Below are positions 173-18,298 of a stretch of 64,000 bases of DNA, in pieces (position 1 is the first letter of the stretch; each line of letters begins with the position of its first letter). Under the pieces are notes generated by a model. The model had not been told where the DNA came from and ran no database searches. It saw nothing but the letters and a program-made list of their open reading frames with translations. Origin of the DNA: a virus (Duplodnaviria; Heunggongvirae; Uroviricota; Caudoviricetes); IMG/VR virus record IMGVR_UViG_3300021400_000048, positions 120,791 to 184,790 of that record. One strand, written 5' to 3'. A program made the translations under genes and the position numbers.

Positions 173-227
173 ATTATATCACAAACTATTTTAAAAGTAA
201 ATAGTTTCTACAATGAAAACGTTTTCA
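173..227 (-). promoter_or_regulatory. sigma70 promoter plus cre-like operator
   Basis: TATAAT 173-178, TTTACT 196-201 (17-bp spacer), TGAAAACGTTTTCA 214-227. Confidence 0.8.
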
Positions 228-249
228 GTTTTTACAAGTCGAGACGATT

Positions 250-666
250 TTAAAAATCGCCTCGAACTGAATTTTGTTTTTTTAATTGATCTAATTTATC
301 TTTATAAGCATTAACTGCTGCTTTGCATTTGCTGCCGATATAATTTCTATCTTCAAAAATTATACAATTAGTATTAGAAGTATTATCTATATATCTAATA
401 ACATTTACTGTGCCGCCACCATCGTAATTTTCAAATTCAAAATAAAATGTAGGAACAGGCTCTGCAACATATTGACCAGTTGTATAACTATAATTAGATT
501 TATAATAAATAGATAAATAATTTATTCCATCATTATTTAAATATCTGCATTTTGTATAAAGCTTATCTAAAGCTTGCTCTAATGTTTCTCCGGTAAAATT
601 ATATTTAACATCTCTACCGCAACCAACCCAACTACTTGTACTAATACTTGCTTCAATTTTATACAT
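250..666 (-). CDS. hypothetical early protein (138 aa)
   Basis: ORF directly downstream of promoter 706-760; TAA stop. Confidence 0.75.
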   Translation of the reverse strand: MYKIEASISTSSWVGCGRDVKYNFTGETLEQALDKLYTKCRYLNNDGINYLSIYYKSNYSYTTGQYVAEPVPTFYFEFENYDGGGTVNVIRYIDNTSNTNCIIFEDRNYIGSKCKAAVNAYKDKLDQLKKQNSVRGDF

Positions 667-705
667 AATATACTTCTCTCTTTCTGTATTCTTAAATACA
701 ATAAT

Positions 706-762
706 ATTATATCGTAAAACTGCAAAAAAGTAAATAGTTTATATAGTGAAAACGTTTTCACT
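706..762 (-). promoter_or_regulatory. sigma70 promoter plus cre-like operator
   Basis: TATAAT 706-711, TTTACT 729-734, TGAAAACGTTTTCA 747-760 within an 18-bp palindrome 745-762. Confidence 0.8.
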
Positions 763-1006
763 AATTTTCATTATGCATAAAACAATCACTCTTGTGAAGC
801 CAATAATTGTATTGATCAACATCATCGATCACTTCTGGTGATACAGTATATTCCAAGTCTTCTATTTGCTCTCTAGTAAGCTTGCCAACTTCTTCGATTA
901 AAAACTCTTTTGTAATTGCTTTATTGTTATCAACTAACAACACTTTCTTTTCTGGCAAACCTTCTGCATGTACTTTGTATTTAATATTAAATACTTTAAC
1001 TAACAT
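761..1006 (-). CDS. hypothetical early protein (81 aa)
   Basis: ORF with AAGGA RBS. Confidence 0.75.
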   Translation of the reverse strand: MLVKVFNIKYKVHAEGLPEKKVLLVDNNKAITKEFLIEEVGKLTREQIEDLEYTVSPEVIDDVDQYNYWLHKSDCFMHNEN

Positions 1007-1024
1007 ATAAAAATCACTTCCTTT

Positions 1025-1216
1025 TTAGTCAGCAAGATTATATGCCTTTCTTAATTCCATTATTGCTGCATAGCAAAGATCTAGCTCAGCTTTAATAATA
1101 ATTTCAGGCATATTCTCTTGAATTTGTTTATCAAGTCTTTCAACTCTTCTAACTAATTGCTTAAGTGTTTGAAACTTATCTACGGCTTTTTTTACTTTTA
1201 CTTTTTTTACTGGCAT
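1025..1216 (-). CDS. hypothetical early protein (63 aa)
   Basis: ATG at 1214-1216 one base after upstream TAA; track start at 1276 overlaps the 52-aa gene. Confidence 0.65.
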   Translation of the reverse strand: MPVKKVKVKKAVDKFQTLKQLVRRVERLDKQIQENMPEIIIKAELDLCYAAIMELRKAYNLAD

Positions 1217-1217
1217 A

Positions 1218-1376
1218 TTATTTTCTCTTCTTTCTTTTCTTATCTTTCTTTTTATTTTGCTTAGACGTATCCACAATATCCTTTGCAGGAATTATTTTAC
1301 CATTATTGATAACATCAACATTAGTATATCATAGATTATATAAAGCTTGGACTAATTCTTTTGTACTTTCTTTCAT
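1218..1376 (-). CDS. small Lys-rich-tailed protein, 52 aa under code 4
   Basis: TAATG-coupled to upstream gene; in-frame TGA at 1329-1331; fills the gap exactly; missing from track. Confidence 0.65.
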
Positions 1377-1702
1377 TATTCTTCTACCTCCTCTAAAGAT
1401 AATTTTGTTCCTATATATTTATTTTTTAAACTTTGATAATCACCTTCATAAAACATAGGACAAGTATCCTCATAAAAGACAATATCCTTAATAATCATAT
1501 CTTTATCAACAACAATATGACCATTTGTAGCACCTGGATGTCTAAAAGCTATAGGAACAATATCTCCTTTAAGACAACTTTCAACTTCGGCTTTCCATAA
1601 ATAAGAATGAACACTGAAATCTAAATCTCTATAGTTATTTTTAATATCAGCTTTAAGATAATTATCTAAGTCGATCATTAAGTTATTTACTATTCCATTC
1701 AT
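1376..1702 (-). CDS. hypothetical early protein (108 aa)
   Basis: ORF with GAGGT RBS. Confidence 0.75.
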   Translation of the reverse strand: MNGIVNNLMIDLDNYLKADIKNNYRDLDFSVHSYLWKAEVESCLKGDIVPIAFRHPGATNGHIVVDKDMIIKDIVFYEDTCPMFYEGDYQSLKNKYIGTKLSLEEVEE

Positions 1703-1713
1703 TATTTTTACCT

Positions 1714-1917
1714 CTATTCATTTCTAATAATTAGTGCATCGCCGTTTTGAAGTCTCCAAACATTTTCTTTTTCACTTCTTGCTTCTTGTCTATTCTCTCG
1801 AACTATTCGAAGTGCAGTTGTTTTAGATTCACTATAATATTTAGCATCATCGATAACGCGCTCAACATATTCTTTACTTGAAATTTCAGTATTGTTAAGA
1901 TAATATTTTAATTTCAT
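1714..1917 (-). CDS. hypothetical early protein (67 aa)
   Basis: ATG 1915-1917 after GGTGG RBS, downstream of promoter 1948-2013. Confidence 0.7.
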   Translation of the reverse strand: MKLKYYLNNTEISSKEYVERVIDDAKYYSESKTTALRIVRENRQEARSEKENVWRLQNGDALIIRNE

Positions 1918-1947
1918 AAACAACCACCACACTTATCTTACGGCTAT

Positions 1948-2013
1948 ATTATATCATGAAAAATAAAATTTGTAAATAGTTTTCAAAGAAAATTTTATAT
2001 GAAAACGCTTTCA
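1948..2013 (-). promoter_or_regulatory. sigma70 promoter plus cre-like operator (long spacing)
   Basis: TATAAT 1948-1953, TTTACA 1971-1976, TGAAAACGCTTTCA 2000-2013. Confidence 0.8.
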
Positions 2014-2016
2014 TAT

Positions 2017-2048
2017 AAAAAAAGATCTTATATTAAATAAGATCTTTT
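2017..2048 (-). terminator. intrinsic terminator
   Basis: AAAAGATCTTA..TAAGATCTTTT inverted repeat with T-tract on minus strand. Confidence 0.6.
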
Positions 2049-2302
2049 AAGTCTTCAAACTCTTTCTTTAAGTCTACAATAAAATCATAATCTTTAATTA
2101 CTGCAACTTTAACAGTTTTAAAATCTTCATCAAACTCATCACAGAAAACTTCTATAAGTTTATTATACCACTCTTCAAAACTTATATTAGAGTTTTGCAC
2201 AAGTAGGTCAGTTTTTGCATTTTGAGTTTTTGTTTCATAATCATGAAAGTCTGTTGAAAATAATGCTTCATAAAATTTGTTAACAACTTTGTTCTTATAC
2301 AT
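2033..2302 (-). CDS. hypothetical early protein (89 aa)
   Basis: ORF downstream of promoter 2341-2406. Confidence 0.75.
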   Translation of the reverse strand: MYKNKVVNKFYEALFSTDFHDYETKTQNAKTDLLVQNSNISFEEWYNKLIEVFCDEFDEDFKTVKVAVIKDYDFIVDLKKEFEDLKDLI

Positions 2303-2340
2303 AATTAAAGCTCTCTTTCTGTATTTTTAAATACATAAAT

Positions 2341-2406
2341 ATTATATCATGTTTTTATTAATTTGTAAATAGTTTTCATTTAGAAAAAAGAATGAAAGCG
2401 TTTTCA
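2341..2406 (-). promoter_or_regulatory. sigma70 promoter plus cre-like operator (long spacing)
   Basis: TATAAT 2341-2346, TTTACA 2364-2369, TGAAAGCGTTTTCA 2393-2406. Confidence 0.8.
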
Positions 2407-2441
2407 GGTGCCTACATTCTTGTGTAATTCTTACCTTACTA

Positions 2442-2735
2442 TTAAAACATTCTATTAATCACATCCACAAGTTCACGTTCACGATCATAGCTTAACTCAT
2501 CAAAATCGTCTAAACTAAAATCACCATCATCAATTAAATTTTTAATTCTTACTACAACTTCTTCTGCTTTTGCTTCTGATGACTGAATCCAATCATAAAC
2601 AAAATCACAAATTGTTTCAAATTGAGCTTCATTTAAACGATTACCAAAGTAATAATCTACTTCCGATGCAACAACAACTTTATATAATGATAATCCTGTC
2701 GCATCGAAGTTTCTAAGCATTTCTTTATAATACAT
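2442..2735 (-). CDS. hypothetical early protein (97 aa)
   Basis: ORF coupled to KTSC gene. Confidence 0.75.
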   Translation of the reverse strand: MYYKEMLRNFDATGLSLYKVVVASEVDYYFGNRLNEAQFETICDFVYDWIQSSEAKAEEVVVRIKNLIDDGDFSLDDFDELSYDRERELVDVINRMF

Positions 2736-2736
2736 T

Positions 2737-2949
2737 TTACTTCACCTCACAAAGTCTTTCATATTTAAAATTATATTTGATATTCTCATTCATAAAACGA
2801 CCTTTAGATGGTGCATTTTTTAAATCTTCAAATAACTCTTTACTAACACCGATATAACGATAAGTTCCTGATGCATACTTAACATAAAGATCCTTGCCAT
2901 CATAACCAATTGATTCAACATTACTAGATTGTACTTTAATCATTTCCAT
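2737..2949 (-). CDS. KTSC domain protein
   Basis: VQSSNVESIGYD..LYVKYASG.Y.Y.GV...F..L.NAPSKGRF matches the KTSC pattern; GGAGG RBS. Confidence 0.85.
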   Translation of the reverse strand: MEMIKVQSSNVESIGYDGKDLYVKYASGTYRYIGVSKELFEDLKNAPSKGRFMNENIKYNFKYERLCEVK

Positions 2950-2980
2950 AATATTACCTCCAATTTTTATTTACATAAAT

Positions 2981-3035
2981 ATTATATCATATTCTTATTA
3001 AAAAGTAAATAGTTTTCATAGTGAAAGCGTTTTCG
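2981..3035 (-). promoter_or_regulatory. sigma70 promoter plus cre-like operator
   Basis: TATAAT 2981-2986, TTTACT 3004-3009, TGAAAGCGTTTTCG 3022-3035. Confidence 0.8.
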
Positions 3036-3093
3036 TAAAAGCTAAATAATAATTGGGTCAAAATAAGCTTTTAACCCAATTGCAATATTTATA

Positions 3094-3393
3094 TTATTTA
3101 TTACGATGTCTAACAATAGAAACTTTACCATCTTTAATATCTCTACTAAGTTTTAATAGTTCTTTAAAGTCTTCAAAAGTTCCAACAAAATCGTGTGAGT
3201 TCCAATCAGTTGAACAACTTGATCCGTCATTAGTTCCAACTCTAACTATTAATTGTTCTTTATCATTATAATGCATTGTTGCAATTATACTACCATTCCA
3301 ACTTTGACAACTTGATCTAAATCCACTATTCTTACTACCGCCACGAGTTGCTGCTCCACGATTTCCACAAATACTTCCATAAAATGCTGACAT
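3094..3393 (-). CDS. hypothetical early protein (MSAFYG...RGGSK..SWNG)
   Basis: ORF with AAGGA RBS; start may be 3393 or 3429. Confidence 0.7.
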   Translation of the reverse strand: MSAFYGSICGNRGAATRGGSKNSGFRSSCQSWNGSIIATMHYNDKEQLIVRVGTNDGSSCSTDWNSHDFVGTFEDFKELLKLSRDIKDGKVSIVRHRNK

Positions 3394-3447
3394 ATTATTT
3401 TTCCTTTCCTGTTTTATAGTGTTGTTCATTCACTTATTTACACTTAT

Positions 3448-3513
3448 ATTATATCACATATTTAATTATTTGTAAATAGTTTTTAAAGAAAATTTTTTAT
3501 GAAAACGTTTACA
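3448..3513 (-). promoter_or_regulatory. sigma70 promoter plus cre-like operator (long spacing)
   Basis: TATAAT 3448-3453, TTTACA 3471-3476, TGAAAACGTTTACA 3500-3513. Confidence 0.8.
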
Positions 3514-3741
3514 TTATTCTTCTACTTCTTTTAATTCAACCTCAACAAGTTTATAAGTTATTTTAAAAGTTTTCTGTGATAGAAAATCTACAAACCTATC
3601 ATGCTTTAGTACCCACTCTGCTTGTTCAGTTGCACGCTTAGAATCTACATAAATTTGAGCATGTCTAAGTTCTTTACTAAATTTACTATTACCACACCAA
3701 TAATATTCATTGTTAAATTTAATTACATAAAGTTTCTTCAT
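3514..3741 (-). CDS. hypothetical early protein (75 aa)
   Basis: ORF in early operon. Confidence 0.7.
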   Translation of the reverse strand: MKKLYVIKFNNEYYWCGNSKFSKELRHAQIYVDSKRATEQAEWVLKHDRFVDFLSQKTFKITYKLVEVELKEVEE

Positions 3742-3763
3742 AATTACTATATTTTCTTTATAC

Positions 3764-4135
3764 TTATATTAACAAGTACTTTTTTGCATTATTATATACT
3801 TGATCAGATATTTGACTTTCACAATCAATAATATATTCTTTCATTATATCAATCGGCTTTTTATCACTGTTTTCAAAGTCTTCAACCATATTTAAGCACT
3901 CATCAACCATTGTTTCAATATCATTTGCTCCAAAAATATAATCTAACATACCAACATAGCCAATACCATCTATAGCTATTGCAACCATTACCATATTACT
4001 TGTAGCAGATCCTTCATAGCTTTTCATTTCTAATAACTCATATTTAAAACCTGTCTTTACACTTGTAATTGAAAAACCTTCTCTTTGATCATAATGTACT
4101 GTTAAATCATTTCTTGTTTTTTCTAAGTGTTCCAT
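3764..4135 (-). CDS. hypothetical early protein (123 aa)
   Basis: ORF with AAGGAGG RBS. Confidence 0.8.
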   Translation of the reverse strand: MEHLEKTRNDLTVHYDQREGFSITSVKTGFKYELLEMKSYEGSATSNMVMVAIAIDGIGYVGMLDYIFGANDIETMVDECLNMVEDFENSDKKPIDIMKEYIIDCESQISDQVYNNAKKYLLI

Positions 4136-4163
4136 AGTAGCCTCCTTAATTTATTCTATTAAT

Positions 4164-4218
4164 ATTATATCATAAACAAGTCAAAAAGTAAATATTTTCT
4201 ATAATGAAAGCGCTTTCA
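4164..4218 (-). promoter_or_regulatory. sigma70 promoter plus cre-like operator
   Basis: TATAAT 4164-4169, TTTACT 4187-4192, TGAAAGCGCTTTCA 4205-4218. Confidence 0.85.
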
Positions 4219-4229
4219 TTTTAATTTAT

Positions 4230-4259
4230 AAAAAAAGATCTTACTTAAGTAAGGTCTTT
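4230..4259 (-). terminator. intrinsic terminator
   Basis: AAAGATCTTACT/AGTAAGGTCTTT hairpin plus T-tract. Confidence 0.55.
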
Positions 4260-4584
4260 ATATCTCTACTTCTTCTACTCGATAAGTTTCTGAAAAAATG
4301 CACTCTGCTGCTGAATCATACCAATCAATACATATGTCTGGAATTGTTTTAAAATTACTATTTAATTCACTGATTTCATAGCTATATCCTTCTTCTTGTG
4401 GATATGATCCGTCTTCACTATTTTGAATCTTTGCCTCTTCCTCAACCGAAATCTTAAGATCATTAAATGCTTCTTTGGCAGACTTATATAGTTTATTAGA
4501 ATATAAACCACCATTAGCGCATTCAATTACATTATCACAACAACTATCAGTATTATAATAAGTAATTACATAAAATTTTTCCAT
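4258..4584 (-). CDS. hypothetical acidic early protein (108 aa)
   Basis: ORF with GGAGG RBS. Confidence 0.75.
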   Translation of the reverse strand: MEKFYVITYYNTDSCCDNVIECANGGLYSNKLYKSAKEAFNDLKISVEEEAKIQNSEDGSYPQEEGYSYEISELNSNFKTIPDICIDWYDSAAECIFSETYRVEEVEI

Positions 4585-4586
4585 AG

Positions 4587-4790
4587 TTAGTCCTCCTCCT
4601 CTTCTTCATATCTATCGACTTCTTCATAGTCATTATTTAAAGTTTCAATACTAACATTTCCTAAATCACCACGGCCAGACTTATCCTCTGTATCAAATAA
4701 TCTAACAATCTTCTCAGTTGCATCAACTTCAAATCTAATATAAACTCTTCCAGTTTTTTTGTTCTTATAAAGAATATTTAGTGTTTTCAT
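4587..4790 (-). CDS. hypothetical early protein (67 aa)
   Basis: ORF with AAGGAG RBS. Confidence 0.75.
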   Translation of the reverse strand: MKTLNILYKNKKTGRVYIRFEVDATEKIVRLFDTEDKSGRGDLGNVSIETLNNDYEEVDRYEEEEED

Positions 4791-4818
4791 ATTTACTCTC
4801 CTTATTTTTTATATAATA

Positions 4819-4873
4819 ATTATATCATGTTTCTTTTAAAAAGTAAATAGTTTTTAAACTGAAAGCGCTTTCA
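4819..4873 (-). promoter_or_regulatory. sigma70 promoter plus cre-like operator
   Basis: TATAAT 4819-4824, TTTACT 4842-4847, TGAAAGCGCTTTCA 4860-4873. Confidence 0.85.
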
Positions 4874-4878
4874 TATAA

Positions 4879-5223
4879 TTAAAACCTTCTAGCTATCTCT
4901 AAAGCAGTTCCTTTTAAAACTTCATAGTCTTTATTAATCTCCCAATTAACATTTTTTGAAGTTAAAGATAAATAGTCTTTTTTACCAAAATTAATTTTAT
5001 TTAAAAAAATAACTGAGCCACCAAAATTAACTAAAACTTTATCTTCTAGTGTTGCAAATTTTTTTCCATTATCTGCATCTCTAACATCATAAGCATAGAC
5101 ATTATTTGGAAGCGTCTTACGATCTACATGATATTCATTATAAATACCGTTATAGACTTTGCCATTAATTTCTAAAGAAAAAGCTACTGCATCTTTTAAA
5201 AATGTTTTAAAATCAACTAACAT
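4879..5223 (-). CDS. LPD28 (large polyvalent protein-associated) domain protein
   Basis: VDRKTLPNNVYAYDVRDAD....ATLEDKVLVNFGGSVI resembles LPD28; GAGGA RBS before ATG 5221-5223. Confidence 0.7.
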   Translation of the reverse strand: MLVDFKTFLKDAVAFSLEINGKVYNGIYNEYHVDRKTLPNNVYAYDVRDADNGKKFATLEDKVLVNFGGSVIFLNKINFGKKDYLSLTSKNVNWEINKDYEVLKGTALEIARRF

Positions 5224-5252
5224 AAATATATTCCTCACTTTCTTATATTTAT

Positions 5253-5307
5253 ATTATATCACTTTTTAAATAATTTGTAAACAATTTTTATAATGAAAGC
5301 GCTTTCA
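5253..5307 (-). promoter_or_regulatory. sigma70 promoter plus cre-like operator
   Basis: TATAAT 5253-5258, TTTACA 5276-5281, TGAAAGCGCTTTCA 5294-5307. Confidence 0.85.
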
Positions 5308-5421
5308 TAACTTGTAAAGAATCTGGTAAGATCATGAGTCTAATGTGAGGCTAACTTGTGAAATTACAGGCAAAGATCAGGCGCATCGAAGCTTTGACGG
5401 GCGCATCGGACTTTATGAAAT

Positions 5422-5454
5422 AAAAAAGATAATGTTAGACAACTAACATTATCT
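5422..5454 (-). terminator. intrinsic terminator
   Basis: perfect 12-bp stem AGATAATGTTAG/CTAACATTATCT, 4-nt loop, T-tract. Confidence 0.75.
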
Positions 5455-5474
5455 CTCTAAAAGCAATATTATTT

Positions 5475-6326
5475 TTAATCAAAATCTAAGTTTAGTGGAT
5501 TTTTATCACCAAAATCATGCTCATAACTTGAACCATCATAGTCGTCAGTTAGCATACGTTTTAAGTCATCATAAGTTATATCTAAAACTATATGTATATC
5601 ACCGTCTGGATTAATCTCAAAATGATCTGCTGGGAATTCTTCACAATAAGACCAATAGTCTTGATATCTATCATAATGATCAAAATAATTATAATCGTCT
5701 GTTGTTAGTGGCTCGCCATTATCATAATGTAATGTTCTCATAATTTCATCAATACAAGAATAAATATCAGTATCAGTTTTACCATCAGTTCTATCCATTA
5801 AGAAAATGCCTCCCATCGTAGATGTAGCATCTTCTAGTTTATCAAGTAGTCCAGTAATCTTAGATGAGTCTTTATATTCAGAATTTTCATCATATATTGT
5901 CTCAATAGCGTCACGAATCTCAAAACAAGTAAGCCCTACAAATTCATTATTAAGAATTTTTTGTTGACCCTCTCTTGTAGAACAATCACCATAATGTTCT
6001 AAGACATAAGCTTCACATGTATTAATAAGTTTAGTAACTATTGAAAGCTCAATTTTATCTGATATTGGAAAATCAAATTCAGCATCATCAAAAATATTAT
6101 CGCCTAGTAAATTGTAATAGTTACCCGCATACTCAAATTTATTTGTTTCTTTATCAAAATAAATAGAAATAAATAATGTGTTAAGTAATTTTTCATTTTC
6201 ATAATCTATCATAATTTCATCAATTAAATCTGAAAATGCCTCACTTGTATAATCAGCAAAAACAACACCTGGAATTTTTTCAAGTTGTGTTATTATATTT
6301 TTAATTTGTTCTTCTGTATATTGCAT
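5475..6326 (-). CDS. acidic hypothetical protein (283 aa)
   Basis: long ORF with AAGGAG RBS; second gene behind late motif 6771. Confidence 0.85.
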   Translation of the reverse strand: MQYTEEQIKNIITQLEKIPGVVFADYTSEAFSDLIDEIMIDYENEKLLNTLFISIYFDKETNKFEYAGNYYNLLGDNIFDDAEFDFPISDKIELSIVTKLINTCEAYVLEHYGDCSTREGQQKILNNEFVGLTCFEIRDAIETIYDENSEYKDSSKITGLLDKLEDATSTMGGIFLMDRTDGKTDTDIYSCIDEIMRTLHYDNGEPLTTDDYNYFDHYDRYQDYWSYCEEFPADHFEINPDGDIHIVLDITYDDLKRMLTDDYDGSSYEHDFGDKNPLNLDFD

Positions 6327-6348
6327 AGTAGTGCTCCTTAATTATAAT

Positions 6349-6750
6349 TTATTTTTCTTCTATTACATCAAATTTAAAACCTGTTGGAAAGATTCCATAT
6401 TCATCATAAATTAAACTGTCTAGCTCGCTGCCAAGCACATCTTCTACATCATCATCTTTTCCAACATATTCTACAGTTATTGTTACTTCATCAGGAAGAT
6501 CATCTGCACCGATGCTAAGCTCTGCAACATCTTCTGGATCATAGCTAATATCATAGCATTTTGCCACTATATCTCTTTCAATGATTTCTGTATCCACATT
6601 ATCAACTGTAAAGTCTTTAACATATCCTTCATTAACTAGATCTGCTAAATCCATGTTTATAAGTTTAGCTTTTGCTTCTTCTTCAGTGGCTGCATCAATC
6701 TCTACATTCTGTATCCATGCATCAACACTAAAATCAAATTTAAATTTCAT
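6349..6750 (-). CDS. acidic hypothetical protein (133 aa)
   Basis: AAGGAG RBS before ATG 6748-6750. Confidence 0.8.
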   Translation of the reverse strand: MKFKFDFSVDAWIQNVEIDAATEEEAKAKLINMDLADLVNEGYVKDFTVDNVDTEIIERDIVAKCYDISYDPEDVAELSIGADDLPDEVTITVEYVGKDDDVEDVLGSELDSLIYDEYGIFPTGFKFDVIEEK

Positions 6751-6770
6751 AAGCAAACTCCTTTTACTAT

Positions 6771-6779
6771 TAATTTAGC
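6771..6779 (-). promoter_or_regulatory. putative late promoter GCTAAATTA
   Basis: motif recurs in 12 intergenic sites just upstream of RBS/starts. Confidence 0.65.
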
Positions 6780-6798
6780 GAATTTAAAATAAGCGAAT

Positions 6799-7521: not shown

Positions 7522-7535
7522 AAATCCTCCAAAAT

Positions 7536-7570
7536 GAAATTAATGAAATTACCGAAATTACGGAAATTAC
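7536..7570. repeat. 4x GAAATTA(C) direct repeats, 9-bp period
   Basis: gaaatta at 7536, 7545, 7554, 7563, between promoter and RBS of the initiator-like gene. Confidence 0.75.
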
Positions 7571-7580
7571 CTTTATACCT

Positions 7581-7593
7581 TATTATACAATAA
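7581..7593 (-). promoter_or_regulatory. class II promoter motif TTATTGTATAATA
   Basis: recurrent motif with no consensus -35 seen. Confidence 0.55.
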
Positions 7594-7604
7594 AAATATA
7601 AGCA

Positions 7605-10176: not shown

Positions 10177-10208
10177 ATTATATTCCTCCTTTGTTTTATT
10201 CTATATGT

Positions 10209-10446: not shown

Positions 10447-10448
10447 AA

Positions 10449-10832: not shown

Positions 10833-11148
10833 CAGCTTCAATATACTCCAGCACTTCAAAAGTTTCTGTATCTGCTAATTTATTTTCTAAATAAGATGTT
10901 TCATCATAATATCCAGAATTTAAATACTTAGATATTTCAATAAAGATAGCTGAGCAAGAATTGCCTGTACAAGTTCTAACTGTTTTAGCTCCACCTTTAT
11001 AATTAATTACTAAGTATTCTGAAACACAATCAAAATCCTTATTTCTAAGTACAATATAATCAATGCTCTCAACATTGTCTTGGACTTTAGTAATTGCTTT
11101 ACTAATACTGTGTACAAAATTAACTTTTTTATTTAAATATTCTTTCAT
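10825..11148 (-). CDS. hypothetical early protein
   Basis: TAATG-coupled start. Confidence 0.75.
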   Translation of the reverse strand: MKEYLNKKVNFVHSISKAITKVQDNVESIDYIVLRNKDFDCVSEYLVINYKGGAKTVRTCTGNSCSAIFIEISKYLNSGYYDETSYLENKLADTETFEVLEYIEADE

Positions 11149-11681
11149 TAGCATAGTTTGTCTCCTGTAATTAAATTGACTATTGTATTTAAATCTTCTT
11201 CAGGAATAGCTCTATATAGCCAGCCTGTTCCATAAGTATATTCAGTACCATCAGATAATTTTACAGTTAATAAATTATTTTCCTCTAAAGCTTTCTTTGC
11301 TTCTGAATAATCATATCTTATATTTTCTGCTTTGAAGTAGTCATCAAGAAAAGCTTCTTGCTCTTCAGTGCCGGCATGCATACTATTTAAATGATATTTT
11401 TTCCATAATGTATAAATAGCTTTAAATTCTGGTGTATCTACATATTTTGCAATCTCATCTAGACATTGACCACCACAATAAATATCCGAATGAATATGAT
11501 TCCAAATACGACCGCTAGCAGTAAATTCAATTTTATTACCTTCTCTTAAATACAAGTTAATTGTAACGTCTACAAGATTAGCTTTTCTTTTTGATCGATA
11601 AGCAATTTTACCAAATTTAAAAGTCTTACTAATTCGACCACCGCTTACTAATAATAAGTTTAAAACTTCTGATTGTGTCAT
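11148..11681 (-). CDS. hypothetical phage protein (GQCLDEI..LWKKYHLNSMHAG..YGTGW)
   Basis: AAGGAGG RBS; first gene after promoter 11712. Confidence 0.8.
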   Translation of the reverse strand: MTQSEVLNLLLVSGGRISKTFKFGKIAYRSKRKANLVDVTINLYLREGNKIEFTASGRIWNHIHSDIYCGGQCLDEIAKYVDTPEFKAIYTLWKKYHLNSMHAGTEEQEAFLDDYFKAENIRYDYSEAKKALEENNLLTVKLSDGTEYTYGTGWLYRAIPEEDLNTIVNLITGDKLC

Positions 11682-11711
11682 AAATATTGCCTCCTTAATT
11701 TTTACAGTTAT

Positions 11712-11766
11712 ATTATATCACAAAATAAATAAAAAGTAAATAGAAAACGCAATGAAAGCGTTTTCT
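11712..11766 (-). promoter_or_regulatory. sigma70 promoter plus cre-like operator
   Basis: TATAAT 11712-11717, TTTACT 11735-11740, TGAAAGCGTTTTCT 11753-11766. Confidence 0.8.
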
Positions 11767-12212
11767 TAAAGCATATTAGCTGCTTTCATTGCTTCTTCTA
11801 GCATTTTAGGTGTCTTTAAAGAATTATACTCATCCTGTGCTGGATACCAAACTTCATCTTTATCACAAAAACCATAATAAGTATAATCAGGTGTAAATGA
11901 TCTATAAATTGCTTCACCTTCTGGACTATGCCCATTTTTGCTTTCTTCTTTATGCGCCCACATACCATTAGCACAGCCAGAGGCACCAACTTTAAAACAT
12001 ACATAGCCAGTATAACCTAACTTAATTGCTTCCTTTAAAAATGTTCTCATTTGTTTCATATGGCTAATTGTTAATCTTTCAGGCCACCAATCAAAAATTG
12101 ATAGATCATCATAAACCACGCTAATAGGTCTTGCACAGCCACTTTCAATCATTTGTTCTAGTCTTTCTAATACAGGTTTTGCATTATATTCATTTAAAGG
12201 TCTGTTGTTCAT
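11766..12212 (-). CDS. hypothetical early protein (148 aa)
   Basis: AAGGAGG RBS. Confidence 0.8.
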   Translation of the reverse strand: MNNRPLNEYNAKPVLERLEQMIESGCARPISVVYDDLSIFDWWPERLTISHMKQMRTFLKEAIKLGYTGYVCFKVGASGCANGMWAHKEESKNGHSPEGEAIYRSFTPDYTYYGFCDKDEVWYPAQDEYNSLKTPKMLEEAMKAANML

Positions 12213-12247
12213 ATTATATTCCTCCTTATTGATTATTTCTATATATA

Positions 12248-12493
12248 TTATATTTCTACTTCGTCAATATGAGCATAATTTCTAATTTCAATATCTTCAT
12301 TTTCACAAATATCAAAACTCTTGTCGCCATCTTCATAACTATCGTCTGGATCTTCAAAATATTCAATAGTGTTATCATGAAGTTTTTTCAACTCATCAAT
12401 TGCTTCTTGTTCTGTTTTGTGAACTGAATGAACTTGACTATAAAAATTGTAATCGTCGTCTGATATTGCTTCTGTAATAATAAATAATTTCAT
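12248..12493 (-). CDS. acidic hypothetical early protein (81 aa)
   Basis: AAGGAGG RBS. Confidence 0.75.
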   Translation of the reverse strand: MKLFIITEAISDDDYNFYSQVHSVHKTEQEAIDELKKLHDNTIEYFEDPDDSYEDGDKSFDICENEDIEIRNYAHIDEVEI

Positions 12494-12522
12494 AATTATC
12501 CTCCTTAATTATTTATATAAAT

Positions 12523-12577
12523 ATTATAACGCAAATAAGACAAAAAGTAAATAGTTTCTATAATGAAAGCGTTTACA
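12523..12577 (-). promoter_or_regulatory. sigma70 promoter plus cre-like operator
   Basis: TATAAT 12523-12528, TTTACT 12546-12551, TGAAAGCGTTTACA 12564-12577. Confidence 0.8.
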
Positions 12578-12821
12578 GTTTTCTTTCATTCCATTTGTCA
12601 GTTGCTTTTTGTTTAAACAGCTCATCTTTTTCTACTTCATGACGAATTAATCCACCAGAGCTAAGCTGCTTACCACTAACCAGCACTCGTGGCCCATAAG
12701 TATGACATTTTTTACAATACATCTGTACATGATAATTTATATTTCTTGATCTACCAGTTGTTTTAATTGAATAATCAATATTAGTTGATCCGCAAAAAGG
12801 ACAAGGCTTAATTTCTTGCAT
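12573..12821 (-). CDS. Lar-family restriction alleviation zinc-ribbon protein
   Basis: IKPCPFCG...YCKKCHTYGP...KWNER matches the Lar family pattern. Confidence 0.7.
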   Translation of the reverse strand: MQEIKPCPFCGSTNIDYSIKTTGRSRNINYHVQMYCKKCHTYGPRVLVSGKQLSSGGLIRHEVEKDELFKQKATDKWNERKL

Positions 12822-13020
12822 TATTTGTCTCCATTTCTTTTATAATATAAGATACATGGTCTCGCTTTATATTATACTTGCATTCACTAGCAATTTTCTT
12901 TTTTGTAGCACGCGCATGTTTTAGCATTTGAGTTTTATTTTTAAACTCTTTTTCTTCGTATAATACATGTTCGTTTAGTCCACCACAAACCGATCTAAAA
13001 TATTGAATTTCAACTTTCAT
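12808..13020 (-). CDS. hypothetical early protein (70 aa)
   Basis: ORF in operon. Confidence 0.7.
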   Translation of the reverse strand: MKVEIQYFRSVCGGLNEHVLYEEKEFKNKTQMLKHARATKKKIASECKYNIKRDHVSYIIKEMETNNARN

Positions 13021-13022
13021 AA

Positions 13023-13187
13023 TTAAAGTAGTCCTTTCAATGCTTTAAATTCTTTAAGTTCTTCTTTAGTAAAACCATTATCTAAAAGATTATCTACTAA
13101 GTCAGACATATCACTATTTTCATCATAAGCGTCCAATAGATCATCTAATAAAAATTCTATTAATTTTTTTAATCTTGATTCTTTCAT
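13023..13187 (-). CDS. small hypothetical protein (54 aa)
   Basis: open ORF MKESRLKKLIEFLLDD... directly after promoter 13215; below track cutoff. Confidence 0.65.
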   Translation of the reverse strand: MKESRLKKLIEFLLDDLLDAYDENSDMSDLVDNLLDNGFTKEELKEFKALKGLL

Positions 13188-13214
13188 AAATATTCACTCA
13201 CTTTCTATATCTGT

Positions 13215-13284
13215 ATTATATCATATTTTAGACAAAAAGTAAATAGTTTTTAAAAAAAGATTTTACGAAAACGTTTTCGTAAAA
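13215..13284 (-). promoter_or_regulatory. sigma70 promoter plus cre-like operator within a 24-bp perfect palindrome
   Basis: TATAAT 13215-13220, TTTACT 13238-13243, TTTTACGAAAACGTTTTCGTAAAA 13261-13284. Confidence 0.8.
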
Positions 13285-13293
13285 CCTATTATT

Positions 13294-13818
13294 CTATTTT
13301 TCTTCTTTTTTAATTAAGTCTTCAATTGTCCAATAATGCTTATTTAAATATTCAATAACATAATGCGCATTTTCACCAAACTTTTCTTGTGCAACTTTTA
13401 GTAAATCTGCTGCATCCTTCTTCATTTTTGTTTCAGCATCTTCTTTAGCAACGATTCTTTGCTTAGCTTGAACAACTGCTGTGGCAAAATCTTTTGCATA
13501 AAATACTACACCTAAATTTTTAAATGTCCAATCATTATAATGATGACCATAAAAATAATGACGTTCACCTTTTTGTTTCTTTGCTTCTATATAGCCAACT
13601 TCTTGATTACCTTTGTAAATAATATAAGCAGTTTGATTGCTAGGTCTATAACGATTAACACCATAGCGTGAAACTGAAAAATCATTTTCATTTAAACCTT
13701 GCTCATTAATAAAAGCTTTAAATACTTGTGCAACATCCATGTCCCAACAATAGCCAAAGTTTTTTCCTACTAGTTGTTTTTGTAAATAAGATCTTAGATC
13801 TACTTCTGAAAAGTTCAT
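13294..13818 (-). CDS. hypothetical early protein (174 aa)
   Basis: AAGGAGG RBS. Confidence 0.8.
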   Translation of the reverse strand: MNFSEVDLRSYLQKQLVGKNFGYCWDMDVAQVFKAFINEQGLNENDFSVSRYGVNRYRPSNQTAYIIYKGNQEVGYIEAKKQKGERHYFYGHHYNDWTFKNLGVVFYAKDFATAVVQAKQRIVAKEDAETKMKKDAADLLKVAQEKFGENAHYVIEYLNKHYWTIEDLIKKEEK

Positions 13819-13846
13819 AATATTCCTCCTTAATTTCTATACTTGT

Positions 13847-13901
13847 ATTATATCATATTTCAAATAATTTGTAAATGATTTTTAAAGTGAAAGCGCTTTC
13901 A
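13847..13901 (-). promoter_or_regulatory. sigma70 promoter plus cre-like operator
   Basis: TATAAT 13847-13852, TTTACA 13870-13875, TGAAAGCGCTTTCA 13888-13901. Confidence 0.85.
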
Positions 13902-13914
13902 TAATTGTATAATT

Positions 13915-13944
13915 AAAAAATGCTAGGAATTAACCCAGCATTTT
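13915..13944 (-). terminator. intrinsic terminator
   Basis: AAAATGCT..AGCATTTT hairpin plus T-tract. Confidence 0.55.
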
Positions 13945-13968
13945 ATTCAGCAGTTTTTACCTATTTAA

Positions 13969-14457
13969 CTAAAACCAAAGTTTCTTTAGTAGTTCTGTAA
14001 ATTGATTGAAGTTATCAAAGACATCATAACGATTTTTATAGTAATTATATTCTCTAACTACTTTTCCATCATCTGATTTGTAAGTATAGTGGAATCCTTC
14101 TGGATGATCAGCTAAGAATTTATCCAAAGCTTCGCTAGCAGTTTTTTCGATTTCTGCTAAAGCTTTTTCAGCTTCTGCTACTTTATCCTTGTATTCCTTA
14201 TAAGCATTAGCAATTACATCATTAGCTTTTACTTTAGCTACTTCATAATTGTCAATAGCTTTTTGTACAACAGCAGCTTCTTCTTTTCTAGCAAGCTTAG
14301 CTTCTTCTTTTTTAACAAGCTCAGCCTTATGATCAGCTTCTGCTTTCTTTAATTCCTCTAGATCAGTAAATTCCTTATTTAGTAACTTTGATCTGTAAAC
14401 AACATCATAACTTTCTTCTTCTTTTACTTCTTTTAATTCATCTTTAACATTACTCAT
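13969..14457 (-). CDS. coiled-coil hypothetical protein (162 aa)
   Basis: K/E/A-rich helical ORF with AGGAG RBS. Confidence 0.8.
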   Translation of the reverse strand: MSNVKDELKEVKEEESYDVVYRSKLLNKEFTDLEELKKAEADHKAELVKKEEAKLARKEEAAVVQKAIDNYEVAKVKANDVIANAYKEYKDKVAEAEKALAEIEKTASEALDKFLADHPEGFHYTYKSDDGKVVREYNYYKNRYDVFDNFNQFTELLKKLWF

Positions 14458-14590
14458 TTTAAACTCTCCTATTAGTCTTCGTAAATTTCCTGGCGTTGTC
14501 CTATCTTGCCAGGATATATACTAAAATGATTAATATTTTAGTTAACCTGCTTAGCATTAATTAAGATACTAACCATGTTAATATCTGAAA

Positions 14591-15436
14591 TTAGTCTAAT
14601 TTCGCTGCTTCTTCTTCCATTACTTTAAGAAGCTCTTTATCTTTAACATTGCCATGCTCTGTACTAAATTTTACTAAATCAGCGCCAGTTTTAATTCCTA
14701 GTTTATCAGCAGCAGCCATATAACGTCTTAGTTCATCTGTATTATATGATTCTGTAAATGATTCATCAACTAATTTTTCTTTAGCAATTTCTTTTTTATA
14801 GTCGACTGGCTCACCAAGCACATGAACATTTCCTTGAATAGGTGTTCTGTCATCTGCTAAGTCTTCTGGCACAGTTTCTTCTAGTGATTCTTCAATACCT
14901 AAATCATAGGCACATTTCTTACATATATATCTTTGGTCATCACCCTTAATTAGATCACTTTTAGCAAACTCTTCATGACAACATTGACACTCACCAAAAT
15001 TTTCATCGGCTTCATTTAATGCAGTTAATGCTTCATCAAAACTGAAATCGAACAAATTTCGGCCTCCATATGGATCAGCTGGTAATGGTGCTTCTTCTTC
15101 GTCTTCAGAATCATCTACAATAAAATTATCATAGATTTCAAAGTCATTATCTGCTAACTTACCATCATAGTCACTATCATCAAATAGTTTAGGTTGGCGA
15201 AGATTTGGTTTTTGATTTTGATTGTCCCAACTAAATACACAGACATCATTGCCTGTAGGAACAGGATTACCATTCTCATCATCTACCAATTCGATTTCAT
15301 TAACAAAAGGTGAAACATAATTAGGATCTGTTAAATCCCACTTTTGTTGGATAAAATCTTTAGCTTGATCAAATGTTTCAAATGTATCTTCATCTGGACA
15401 CTCATTCCAAGTTACTTTATAAACATAATTTAACAT
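14591..15436 (-). CDS. acidic protein with zinc ribbon and L-x-E motifs (possible head internal protein)
   Basis: CQCC..CKKC; ALNEA, EESLEE, ESFTES; preceded by late motif 15456. Confidence 0.7.
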   Translation of the reverse strand: MLNYVYKVTWNECPDEDTFETFDQAKDFIQQKWDLTDPNYVSPFVNEIELVDDENGNPVPTGNDVCVFSWDNQNQKPNLRQPKLFDDSDYDGKLADNDFEIYDNFIVDDSEDEEEAPLPADPYGGRNLFDFSFDEALTALNEADENFGECQCCHEEFAKSDLIKGDDQRYICKKCAYDLGIEESLEETVPEDLADDRTPIQGNVHVLGEPVDYKKEIAKEKLVDESFTESYNTDELRRYMAAADKLGIKTGADLVKFSTEHGNVKDKELLKVMEEEAAKLD

Positions 15437-15455
15437 AATCATTCTCCTGTACAAA

Positions 15456-15464
15456 TAATTTAGC
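15456..15464 (-). promoter_or_regulatory. putative late promoter GCTAAATTA
   Basis: motif just upstream of AGGAG RBS. Confidence 0.65.
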
Positions 15465-15469
15465 AATAA

Positions 15470-17167
15470 TTATAGATCAAAAATTATATTTTTTAATAAT
15501 TGCATAAATGCTGGCGACATTTTGCCATCTACAAGGAAATCTGATAAATCTCGTTTATTCTCAACAATCTCTTTAACTCTTTCATCTATAGTATCAGCAC
15601 AGCAAAGGATTTTAACAAAGATTGGTTGATCACTAGTAATACGATAAATTCTATCTATAGACTGTTGCAATGTAGCATCAGTCCAAGGAGTATCTATAAT
15701 TATACTATAGTGACATTCAGGCATACTAAATCCTGTTCCAAGCTTTCCATGTGTTCCAATCAGTAAATTGAAATTGTCTGAATTTCGGAATTTAGAAATA
15801 TTCTCACTAACTACTGGATCTGGAATTTCTCCTGTAGCTAGCATCGGATTATACTTTGCTAATTTAATAGCAAGTACTTCGCATGGCTCTACGAATGTGC
15901 TAAAGATCACTACTTTCTCTCCCGACTCTAGTAAGTCTTCTGCTAGTTCCACTGCGCGTAGCACTTTACTCGACTCTATTGGATTACTAGTTAGTACAGA
16001 AGGTGCTGCAGTAGCCTGGCGAAGTCTAGTAGTTAAAGCGAGTAGGTTACCAGGGTGCAAATCCACTAAATCTGCTTCCTCTTTAACACCATCCTTAACC
16101 GCTTCATAAAATTTACGATGCTCGTCTGACATTTCTACAATTTCGTATTCAACTGTTTTTAGTGGCATGTCTGCTCTGACCATATCAAATGTTCTCCTTA
16201 AGCTACATGAATCTAATTCATCTTTTAGTAAATCTAAATCTCTATATCCAATGATCTGTTTGCCTCCGAAACCTCCGAAGTTACAGAAAGTAGATTTGAA
16301 ATTAGTTAATGTTGACTGATCATTATCTGTCCAGCTAAGCATTAGATAAGCTGATAGTGGACTGTTAGTGATCGGAGTTCCCGATGCAGCTACTTGATAG
16401 TCTGCTTTTAGCTTTAGTAGGTTATCACCTTGTTGACTCTGCTTAGTAGCTCTATGCGCTTCGTCAAAGCAGATCATTCCAATTTTGTTCTTACTCTTTT
16501 TGAAAGCCTCTATAATCTTATCATTACGGATCGTAGAGATATTCACTATAATGAAGAATTCTGAAATTTGATTAATTAGCTGCTCAGCTCTTTCTGCTAC
16601 TGTCTTGTATCTAACTGTTCCAGTTTTAGTAATGTATTCCCCAAGGACTACACAGTCTAAATTTGAAAACTTCTGAATTTCGGATTTTCAATTGGTTCTT
16701 AGTGAATCTACACCGCAAATAATCATGCAATGATCAAGCTTACCTCGGTTATGTAGGGTCTCCGCTAAATACATCATCTCTAAGCTCTTACCTAGGCCCA
16801 TGCCGTCTAAAAGCAACCACTTGTTCTTATTGCATAGCCCATAGTTAATTGCATCTATCTGATGTGAGAATGGTTTATACTTAAAGCTTTTAATTTCTTC
16901 CTCACTAAGTGGTGATTCTGAAATTGACGAAATTTCGGTATCAGGCGCCAAGTGAAGCTCTATATCAGCAGCCATAGTTAATGTATCTAAAGCAGTTGCT
17001 AGGCTTGAGGCAGGAATTTCCCAGAACTTCTGAGTCTTATGCCAGCAAGCTCCATGAACAGATTTTACTAATTCTACTAATTGTGGATTATAGGGAAAGT
17101 CGATTCTAAAGCTGGATAAGCCTGGCATCTTAAATGGTGGCTTTAATTCCGTAATCAAAATTGACAT
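15470..17167 (-). CDS. SNF2-family (SF2) helicase, 565 aa under code 4
   Basis: DGMGLGKS Walker A, DEAH, SGTP, helicase-C Q..DRIYRI; TGA 16688-16690 gives the conserved NW..EI.KF; joins two track ORFs in frame. Confidence 0.92.
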
Positions 17168-17194
17168 ATCTGAAATCTCCCAAATTTCGTTTAA

Positions 17195-17491
17195 TTAAAA
17201 TAGACTTGTTGTAGTATTACTAAAATCCAAAGCTTCATCTTCTTTAGTAGCAGTTGCTGTGATCTTTAAATCCACATTAAATGGTTTATCACAGAAGTCG
17301 CAAATAAACTTAGTAGCATAAGTTGGCTCAGCATCTTTCTTGTAGCCACAATAAATTATTTTGTTTAGAGGATCTCTGACAATATCTTCTGGTCAGCCAA
17401 GAATATCTCCGGCTTCAAAAAGTTCCTCTAAAGTAAATTGCGCGCCACAGTGTGGACAGGTAATAATAATCTTTGGTAAATTATTTTCCAT
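17195..17491 (-). CDS. zinc-finger protein (CPHC..CDFC), 98 aa under code 4
   Basis: AGGAG RBS; one in-frame TGA at 17393-17395; missing from track. Confidence 0.75.
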
Positions 17492-17517
17492 AAATGAAAT
17501 CTCCTAAATTACATTTT

Positions 17518-17760
17518 TTATTTTTTTGCTTTTCTTGGTTTGCCAGCTGCTCCATAAGTCCAGCCAGCTTTTAAATAGTCGGGTAAAAATATAGTATAGA
17601 TATTTTTATAAACTCCATCTTTATGAACATGACAACGCTTAGAGTCTTTACTGCCAAGCTTCCAACCAGCTTTTAAATAATCACTAAGTTGCTCTGGCGA
17701 AATTAACATAATTTCGTTTTGCCTGTGAATATAAATTTTACCTGATTGAAAGTTAGCCAT
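17518..17760 (-). CDS. small basic protein with two DYLKAGWxxG repeats
   Basis: GGAGG RBS before ATG 17758-17760; tandem internal repeat. Confidence 0.7.
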   Translation of the reverse strand: MANFQSGKIYIHRQNEIMLISPEQLSDYLKAGWKLGSKDSKRCHVHKDGVYKNIYTIFLPDYLKAGWTYGAAGKPRKAKK

Positions 17761-17897
17761 GTATTTGCCTCCAAGTGTGCGCGCCATTAGACTTATACTA
17801 TTATAATATATTATACTATATATAAGCATATGACTATAACTATATATTACTATATAATTACTACGTAATTATATAGTGGGAAAATTTCCCTTCTATA

Positions 17898-17910
17898 TAT
17901 TATACAATAA
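17898..17910 (-). promoter_or_regulatory. class II promoter motif TTATTGTATAATA
   Basis: exact motif upstream of 17760/17491/17167 operon. Confidence 0.55.
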
Positions 17911-18143
17911 TTTATAGTAAAATATTAATAATTTTGTAAATTATTTTTTTAGTATTTTATTTTTTAGTATTATATGAAATTTACCAAATCTCAGAATTTA
18001 ATATTTTTAGTATTTAATAGTTTAATACTATAAGCTTTTAATAAATTATTGAATTAATAAATTAATGAAATTAGATAAATTACATGCCAGTTCTGAAATT
18101 GATCAAATTACAGGTCTATATATAGCAAAGCTTCGCCCCATTA

Positions 18144-18207
18144 ATTATATCATAAATTTTATAGTTTGTAAATAGTTTTTAATAAGAAATTTACGAAAGC
18201 GCTTTCA
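18144..18207 (-). promoter_or_regulatory. sigma70 promoter plus cre-like operator (long spacing)
   Basis: TATAAT 18144-18149, TTTACA 18167-18172, CGAAAGCGCTTTCA 18194-18207. Confidence 0.75.
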
Positions 18208-18243
18208 TAAATAAAAAATAAAAAAATATATCTCGCCATTATA

Positions 18244-18298
18244 ATTGTATCATATTTGACACGTTTTGTAAATAGTTTTTAAGACGAAAGCGTTTTCA
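18244..18298 (-). promoter_or_regulatory. sigma70 promoter plus cre-like operator
   Basis: TACAAT 18244-18249, TTTACA 18267-18272, CGAAAGCGTTTTCA 18285-18298. Confidence 0.7.

Follow-up and report, generated by a model that had tools for sequence, protein, structure and literature searches.

Early promoters of a large rumen phage carry cre-type operators at activator spacing, probably served by a host factor

The rumen phage G000 (IMG/VR record IMGVR_UViG_3300021400_000048, 223,464 bp with direct terminal repeats) carries a 14-bp palindrome upstream of the -35 box of each of its early promoters, 16 of which are located in the 64,000-nucleotide stretch analysed here (positions 120,791–184,790 of the record, referred to below as the window). 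The palindrome matches the catabolite-responsive element (cre), the site of the catabolite control protein CcpA, through which Gram-positive bacteria respond to their sugar status, and is held at a small number of discrete distances from the promoter. We consider the best explanation to be that these are cre-type operators at activator spacing that are served by a host factor, most likely CcpA with HPr-Ser-P, and put the probability of this at around 0.6. On this reading of its sequence, G000 probably ties the start of infection to the feeding state of its host.

The promoter modules and their palindrome

The original prediction listed 16 near-identical promoter modules, and the pattern YGAAARCGYTTWCD recovers exactly these, with matches at 214, 747, 2000, 2393, 3022, 3500, 4205, 4860, 5294, 10250, 11753, 12564, 13266, 13888, 18194 and 18285. 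No match to the palindrome pattern was obtained in 100 shuffles of the window and, as had been said of the structural module, no site lies past 18298 within the window. Each module comprises, in order on the minus strand, the palindrome, a spacer, the sequence (AAA)CTATTTAC[A/T], 17 nt, TGnTATAAT and ATnnnT-GTAAA; the -10 box is TACAAT in one module only, the copy at 18285. The spacer from the palindrome to the -35 box measures 12 nt in 11 copies and 21–23 nt in the other five, and TGAAAGCGCTTTCA is present in the window as four exact copies, both as originally described. The modules are as follows.

Module 1: 173–227, minus strand; -10 box 173–178, -35 box 196–201, 12-nt spacer, palindrome TGAAAACGTTTTCA 214–227.
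Module 2: 706–760, minus strand; -10 box 706–711, -35 box 729–734, 12-nt spacer, palindrome 747–760.
Module 3: 1948–2013, minus strand; promoter 1948–1976, 23-nt T/A-tract spacer, palindrome 2000–2013, with the terminator hairpin of the preceding gene just beyond.
Module 4: 2341–2406, minus strand; promoter 2341–2369, 23-nt spacer, palindrome 2393–2406.
Module 5: 2981–3035, minus strand; promoter 2981–3009, 12-nt spacer, palindrome 3022–3035 (CGAAAACGCTTTCA, minus strand), with an adjoining terminator-like hairpin at 3051–3081.
Module 6: 3448–3513, minus strand; promoter 3448–3476, 23-nt spacer, palindrome 3500–3513 (TGTAAACGTTTTCA, minus strand).
Module 7: 4164–4218, minus strand; promoter 4164–4192, 12-nt spacer, palindrome TGAAAGCGCTTTCA 4205–4218.
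Module 8: 4819–4873, minus strand; promoter 4819–4847, 12-nt spacer, palindrome TGAAAGCGCTTTCA 4860–4873.
Module 9: 5253–5307, minus strand; promoter 5253–5281, 12-nt spacer, palindrome TGAAAGCGCTTTCA 5294–5307.
Module 10: 10209–10263, minus strand; promoter 10209–10237, 12-nt spacer, palindrome 10250–10263.
Module 11: 11712–11766, minus strand; promoter 11712–11740, 12-nt spacer, palindrome 11753–11766 (AGAAAACGCTTTCA, minus strand).
Module 12: 12523–12577, minus strand; promoter 12523–12551, 12-nt spacer, palindrome 12564–12577; drives a Lar-like restriction-alleviation gene.
Module 13: 13215–13279, minus strand; promoter 13215–13243, 22-nt spacer, palindrome CGAAAACGTTTTCG 13266–13279.
Module 14: 13847–13901, minus strand; promoter 13847–13875, 12-nt spacer, palindrome TGAAAGCGCTTTCA 13888–13901, with an adjoining terminator at 13917–13944.
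Module 15: 18144–18207, minus strand; promoter 18144–18172, 21-nt spacer, palindrome 18194–18207.
Module 16: 18244–18298, minus strand; promoter 18244–18272 (-10 box TACAAT), 12-nt spacer, palindrome 18285–18298.

The information content of the palindrome is similar to that of the -35 and -10 boxes, whereas its flanks hold almost none, and a simple promoter scan places these same 16 sites at the top of its ranking for the region. A scan of the whole genome, which the original prediction had called for, finds 18 sites, against a chance expectation of none, the two outside the window being at genome positions 119,073 and 7,095. Across the genome the spacer is 12 nt in 12 copies, 13, 21 and 22 nt in one copy each and 23 nt in three. 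All strict host-type promoters of G000 bear the palindrome, which occurs nowhere else in the genome; the remaining matches to the promoter expression are isolated and are without the shared CTA-TTTAC context.

The identification of the palindrome as a cre-type site holds up well. Eleven of the 18 sites match the 14-nt consensus TGWAANCGNTNWCA exactly, and the other seven depart from it at an outermost base alone. No variation is seen in the central CG, G2 or C13. The published cre consensus WTGNNARCGNWWWCAW has an RCGY centre, and GCGC centres together with strong palindromy mark high-affinity cre boxes (PMC3463425; PMC3074128). A sister phage, G001 (IMGVR_UViG_3300028797_000094, a 237,392-bp contig), whose capsid protein is 87% identical to that of G000 and whose GC content is the same (29%), has 17 modules of the same kind. 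Across both phages the palindrome varies internally at positions 6 (R) and 9 (Y) alone, which is the RCGY degeneracy of the cre consensus. Variation is confined to places where CcpA tolerates it: R/Y beside the CG in these two phages and W at position 3/12 in the contigs G014–G019 described below. The longer 16-mer cre consensus with W flanks is matched by five of the 18 modules in G000 and 10 of the 17 in G001, against 0.8 sites expected from shuffles of G000.

The two variable positions also speak to how the palindrome is read. Combinations at positions 6 and 9 (AT 12, GT 8, AC 7, GC 7) are close to independent and display no covariation, which means that a symmetric protein reads the palindrome as double-stranded DNA and that it is not kept as a hairpin. 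The promoter-early stem-loop (PeSL) of T4-type phages would be a different matter: here the sequence is constant, and at 6/9 the pairing combinations are no more frequent than A..C and G..T. Neither is the palindrome itself an UP element, as it has an invariant G, C and CG centre, A/T-tract character being seen only in the spacer to the -35 box. In modules 13 and 11 (13258–13287 and 11742–11766) the palindrome is embedded in a longer terminator-like hairpin. In module 13 it forms the centre of a 30-nt palindrome of 13 pairs with a 4-nt loop, followed by a T run, and may double as a terminator at 13258–13287.

Further evidence comes from the geometry of the modules. In G001 the spacers are 12, 13, 21, 22 or 32 nt long, and the 35 modules of the two phages taken together have spacers solely of 12–13, 21–23 or 32 nt. 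In two orthologous promoter pairs the members are set apart by an insertion that falls between palindrome and -35 box, with the palindrome and core promoter unmoved: module 10 has a 12-nt spacer in G000 and a 22-nt spacer in G001, an exact 10-bp insertion, and module 16 has spacers of 12 and 21 nt, a 9-bp insertion. The suggestion that the face of the helix is preserved, which had been made from the window, is thereby borne out, and taken together the quantised spacers and the 9- and 10-bp indels indicate that selection holds the site on one helix face relative to RNA polymerase. If transcription is assumed to start at the conserved G located 7 nt past the -10 box, the palindrome centres fall at about -54.5, -64.5 and -74.5, all on the upstream side of the -35 box, with whole helical turns between them, as in class I-type activation. 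The 10 bp added in the long spacers are T and A tracts resembling a full UP element, whereas the 12-nt spacer has only the A tract beside the -35 box.

A position upstream of the -35 box belongs, by geometry alone, to the class of cre site that is linked to activation. In the activating ackA2 cre, the centre lies around 22 bp upstream of the -35 box (PMC3074128). Activation from an upstream cre is known for ackA, pta and ilvB, the exception being the lev operon, where CcpA represses from upstream (PMC3074128; PMC3463425).

Recurrence of the site in other phages

A scan of related phages, also proposed originally, reveals cre in the sister phage G001 and other upstream elements in the relatives G004–G007; cre was found as well in the contigs G014–G019. 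A search of IMG/VR in which the palindrome had to precede an extended -10 box and the -35 box was unconstrained yielded the contigs G014 (15 kb), G015 (40 kb) and G016 (18 kb), which are related to one another and have no gene set in common with G000. Their terminase is closest to those of Geobacillus virus E3 and large Bacillus siphophages and, judged by their sequences, they appear to form a lineage of large siphovirus-like phages unrelated to G000. Early promoters in these contigs take the form TTGACA-17-TGnTATAAT, with a consensus -35 box, and in 13 of 16 modules the cre lies upstream of it at a distance of 12 or 22 nt. Frequently a second cre is present 32–36 bp further upstream, and some cre sites are located at about +10 of the preceding promoter. 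Consensus cre sites are dense, with 33 in 7 kb of G014 and 19 in approximately 4 kb of G015. The half-sites in the three contigs are both TGAAA and TGTAA, corresponding to the W of the cre consensus, and position 3/12 is A or T throughout G014–G019.

The sole protein family common to the cre-bearing lineages is a GIY-YIG homing endonuclease that is present also in relatives lacking cre. Two unrelated lineages therefore have the same operator, with the same degeneracy and spacing, and share no candidate binder, as expected of a host factor. The use of this site at this spacing by an unrelated phage lineage makes the host-factor case stronger than it was in the original prediction.

Two arrangements in this lineage merit mention. 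At approximately 6030–6260 of G014, four tandem strong promoters read into a cre at about +10 (a road-block position), whilst the next promoter has its cre at -54.5, and it seems from this layout that the same site is used in both repressing and activating positions. In G016, most of the TTGACA promoters at 7900–12200 have another conserved upstream box, GGCAGACGGAA, which is not palindromic and keeps a fixed distance, with only a few bearing cre; a second factor seems to serve the same upstream socket there.

A further IMG/VR scan, for two cre sites 10–40 nt apart, returned around 18 viral contigs with close pairs or tandem arrays, some of them of the canonical TGTAAGCGCTTACA, against an estimated chance expectation of approximately 0.04 (assuming around 10^11 bases). 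In some of these contigs cre abuts the -35 box. G018 has 13 sites and G019 eight. Tandem arrays of perfect or near-perfect cre sites with periods of 24–27 bp are found just upstream of a promoter in G017, L366, L359 and G018. In G017, a complete genome of 123.6 kb, six copies of TGTAAGCGCTTACA with a 24-bp period occupy 3605–3738, upstream of a promoter; the others are as follows (record coordinates).

L366, 421–515: TGTAAGCGCTTACA array.
L359, 848–973: TGTAAGCGCTTACA array.
G018 C1, 4653–5115: TGTAAACGCTTACA array.

From their sequence and arrangement, the tandem arrays resemble a CcpA decoy or cooperative platform.

Fourteen cultured large Bacillota phages (SP-15, LIS04, HSE3, Geobacillus E3, KKP_3916, Sophrita, Sundance, Phass-1, phiEF24C, EFDG1, EFLK1, K, A511 and SPO1) have no more than one consensus cre site each, with none in phiEF24C, EFDG1 or EFLK1. 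The strict module pattern has no match in 185,579 species genomes, indicating that bacteria are without this exact cassette, and a BLAST search of cultured phages with one module matched the core promoter only.

The relatives G004–G007, with capsid identities of 70–75% and GC contents of 34–38%, have no cre and the same core promoter, TTTACAAA-17-TGnTATAAT-ATATATGTAA. Upstream of it, G007 has phased A/T tracts, and G004, G005 and G006 have hairpins of variable sequence with compensatory stems, followed by TTTGTCAG. A second class of promoter in G005 and G006 has two direct TTGTRAAYA repeats with an 11-bp period, plus AAAAGGGG; we take this class to resemble the TGTWAH-N5-TGTWAH boxes of OmpR-family regulators such as WalR. 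With these various elements on the same core promoter, the region upstream of the -35 box thus behaves as a swappable socket, the cre version of which is that of the low-GC pair G000 and G001.

Set beside positions 1–19000 of the window, contigs assembled from sheep and bovine gut runs connect different early genes to each other at the modules, and some public contigs have the form with a 22-nt spacer where G000 has the 12-nt form. The differences at module junctions could be due either to cassette shuffling among relatives or to an assembly effect of the repeats.

Candidate binders, host and direction of control

We infer the binder, the direction of control and the host from the observations above. 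The palindrome would be the operator of a dimeric LacI-family regulator that is not encoded by the phage, the most likely candidate being host CcpA complexed with HPr-Ser-P. Bound on the helix face of RNA polymerase, the regulator would contact the enzyme, probably via the alpha C-terminal domain, the gap between the palindrome and the -35 box of these sigma-A-type early promoters being filled by the A tract or full UP-like tract. Early transcription, including that of a tRNA array, would in this way be coupled to host carbon and energy status, with activation in the manner of ackA and pta as the most probable direction. There may also be side effects: replicating genomes with 18 strong sites apiece could titrate CcpA, a possibility made more attractive by the tandem cre arrays in other contigs, and regulator bound between operons could block read-through transcription.

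The original prediction had recognised no LacI-family gene in the window. This extends to the whole of G000, where no LacI-type helix-turn-helix (HTH) is detected in six frames at E<=1, and six-frame searches of G001, G014–G019, G004, G006 and G007 likewise found none. No Xre-type HTH (HTH_3) was found in G000, G001 or the other cre-bearing contigs examined, nor were genes for HPr or HprK found in any cre-bearing phage, G000 included. Pfam and PHROGs searches of 36 early open reading frames (ORFs) and of conserved early proteins identified no regulator and no DNA-binding family. Phylogenetic profiling (G000 genes against G001, G004, G006 and G007) did not narrow the field to one candidate binder, there being too many genes specific to G000 and G001.

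A Bacillota-type host for G000 is plausible on sequence grounds. The extended -10 promoters and AGGAGG ribosome-binding sites point this way, and the capsid protein has its nearest matches in Bacillus and Listeria phages. Host predictions published for TGA-recoded phages of the gut also point to Bacillota (bioRxiv 10.1101/2021.08.26.457843). A weak, class-level hint to the host lineage may be offered by the phage tryptophanyl-tRNA synthetase (TrpRS; genome 7623–8621), whose closest bacterial relatives, 50–56% identical, are found in Erysipelotrichia, Allobaculum, RF39-type and other gut Bacilli metagenome-assembled genomes (MAGs). Two of these gut Bacilli genomes encode a CcpA-like protein, the best solved relatives of which are CcpA structures and in which the DNA-reading head is conserved; the same two genomes have 7–9 sites within one mismatch of the phage palindrome (0–1 with a reversed-pattern control). 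All that these genomes demonstrate is that regulator and motif are present in the right neighbourhood. One of them, the sheep-rumen MAG G009, was rejected as the host itself, having a GC content of 47% compared with 29% for the phage. Counts of perfect promoters in candidate host genomes yielded nothing useful. DNA nearly identical to that of G000 is present in contigs assembled from public runs labelled sheep, goat and bovine gut.

A number of observations weigh against CcpA-dependent activation. Near-consensus core promoters (TTTACA, 17 nt, TGnTATAAT) may need no activator, and a factor bound upstream can also repress strong promoters. The palindrome centre at -54.5 lies 1–2 bp from the pair of cre centres, at -56.5 and -55.5, of the pta and ackA promoters. 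Seven of the 18 sites do not have the preferred outer T or A. Around 100 genes with no known function are common only to G000 and G001, making a binder that is phage-made or delivered with the virion possible. On the host side, the best LacI-family matches in the candidate lineages all fall below the curated ccpA equivalog cut-off; these lineages encode between one and eight LacI-family proteins each, and other host paralogues could bind the same sequence. Finally, the CcpA site is different in some Clostridia and can do without the central CG, as in C. difficile (PMC3510511).

The main rival explanation, which we regard as unlikely, is that the palindrome is bound by a phage-encoded regulator from outside the LacI family, made early or carried in the virion, that acts either as an auto-activator or as a shut-off repressor holding RNA polymerase at the promoter, as phi29 protein p4 does at the strong early promoter A2c. 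Operators that recur across one temporal class of promoter usually have a phage protein as their partner, the early block is rich in orphan genes, G000 and G001 have many genes that they alone share, and near-consensus core promoters suit repression better than activation; the different upstream elements found on the same core promoter in relatives could each match a phage-specific factor. The precision of the cre match weakens this explanation, the likelihood that an unrelated operator would reproduce the cre consensus, including its pattern of degeneracy, being estimated at around 1 in 1000. So too does recurrence in unrelated phages, given that the lineage with the same site and spacing shares just the GIY-YIG endonuclease with G000 and G001. 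Moreover, no LacI, HTH_3 or other DNA-binding family was found in the searches of G000, and promoters that fire on freshly injected DNA cannot need a protein that has not yet been made.

Less probable again is binding by a host protein other than CcpA, such as a sugar-specific LacI/GalR paralogue or a CcpB-like second regulator. The AANCGNTT core is common to many LacI-family operators, and the candidate lineages encode, as noted above, between one and eight members of the family. Local repressors, however, are scarce and are released by inducers, and would be swamped by the 18 or more strong sites on each genome copy. The half-site TG(A/T)AAR-C is of the CcpA type, and the motif is displayed genome-wide even by gut Bacilli whose small genomes encode only one or two LacI-family proteins.

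Very improbable, finally, is the absence of any dedicated protein partner, with the palindrome being what is left of a terminator hairpin, or its top, or else a recombination junction at which early cassettes are shuffled in the manner of the T4-type PeSL. In its favour, terminators adjoin many modules (two copies of the palindrome lying within a longer hairpin), true hairpins of variable sequence occupy this place in G004, G005 and G006, and metagenome contigs join different early genes at modules. Against it, the sequence itself is constant here rather than just its pairing, without covariation at 6/9; a perfect 14-nt palindrome has no loop; quantised spacing to the -35 box plays no part in termination or recombination; and the identical sequence recurs in unrelated phages.

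Known systems and the early gene block

Host-factor control of the kind proposed for G000 is already known from three settings: Spo0A sites in phi29, a CcpA site in a staphylococcal prophage and activation by CcpA at ackA. The cre boxes of B. subtilis ackA, pta and ilvB, which are served by CcpA/HPr-Ser46-P, resemble the G000 sites in their central CG, outer TG..CA, RCGY centre and location upstream of the -35 box. Natural B. subtilis boxes are degenerate, however, compared with the near-perfect palindromes of G000, which are found on all 18 early promoters, accompany near-consensus cores and are centred 1–2 bp closer to the promoter. In the virulent Bacillus phages phi29 and Nf, Spo0A boxes at early promoters bring about repression during sporulation (PMC2731898). 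There, as proposed for G000, a lytic phage equips its early promoters with sites for a global regulator of the host, such that infection follows host physiology; the G000 site differs in being cre-type, in lying upstream on one helical face and in being attached to every promoter of the early set. The S. aureus prophage PhiSa3XN has a CcpA site in its cI promoter that represses the repressor gene and links glucose to the phage decision (PMC12607152), but this is one degenerate site in a temperate phage, whereas in G000, which is large and apparently lytic, perfect sites form an array at the early promoters.

In working principle only, the modules also recall the class I CRP-dependent promoters of E. 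coli, where a dimeric carbon-status regulator binds upstream of the -35 box on one helix face and shifts by whole turns are tolerated; the protein family, cofactor and preferred distances are all different. Sites at those promoters are located at -61.5, -71.5 and -82.5. The T4-type PeSL has in common with the modules the repetition of terminator plus early promoter cassettes between small early genes, with signs of shuffling. PeSL stems vary in sequence and keep their pairing, whereas the G000 palindrome keeps its sequence without covariation; true PeSL-like hairpins are seen in G004, G005 and G006 and not in G000.

What is new is the wiring of an entire early promoter set to cre at phase-locked distances, together with phage-borne cre arrays; among the papers searched there was no report of cre sites on lytic-phage early promoters or of phage-borne cre arrays. 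If CcpA does dock at these sites, a large lytic phage would read the sugar and energy state of its host as infection begins, using the master regulator of that host and no sensor of its own. This would supply a concrete mechanism by which rumen and gut phage infection follows feeding, and could explain how dormant infections are taken up again once sugar is back. In addition, host catabolite control could be rewired by perfect cre arrays carried on a replicating genome, and the modules are predicted to be compact, strong and carbon-responsive promoter parts for Gram-positive engineering. A broader proposal, which we offer tentatively and would not ourselves bet on, is that Bacillota phages widely build operators for host metabolic regulators into their early control DNA, in the form of phase-locked CcpA switch sites and of CcpA-soaking tandem cre arrays that lift catabolite repression, with related phages filling the upstream socket with operators of different host factors, depending on the host.

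The genes behind the modules are for the most part unfamiliar. Nearly all G000 genes are on the minus strand, and a megablast search of cultured phages with 40 kb of the window found no match. The block driven by the modules is as follows.

Early gene block: 250–17829, minus strand; approximately 36 small, mostly orphan ORFs.

Identifiable products of the block are KTSC, LPD28, the Lar-like protein, a weak ArfA-like match and an SNF2 helicase. Module 10 heads an operon made up of the ArfA-like ORF and conserved genes of 236, 284 and 240 amino acids. Elsewhere in the genome, the eighteenth cre-type promoter (copy at genome 7,082; module 7054–7108) drives the array of at least 10 tRNA genes (Gln, Lys, Lys, Arg, Gly, Val, Leu, Phe, Ser and Pro). 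The SNF2 helicase gene (window 15470–17167, minus strand) forms a single frame of 565 codons only if one TGA (W160) is read as tryptophan. As the helicase is kept full-length in relatives, this is a recoded gene within an otherwise TGA-free block.

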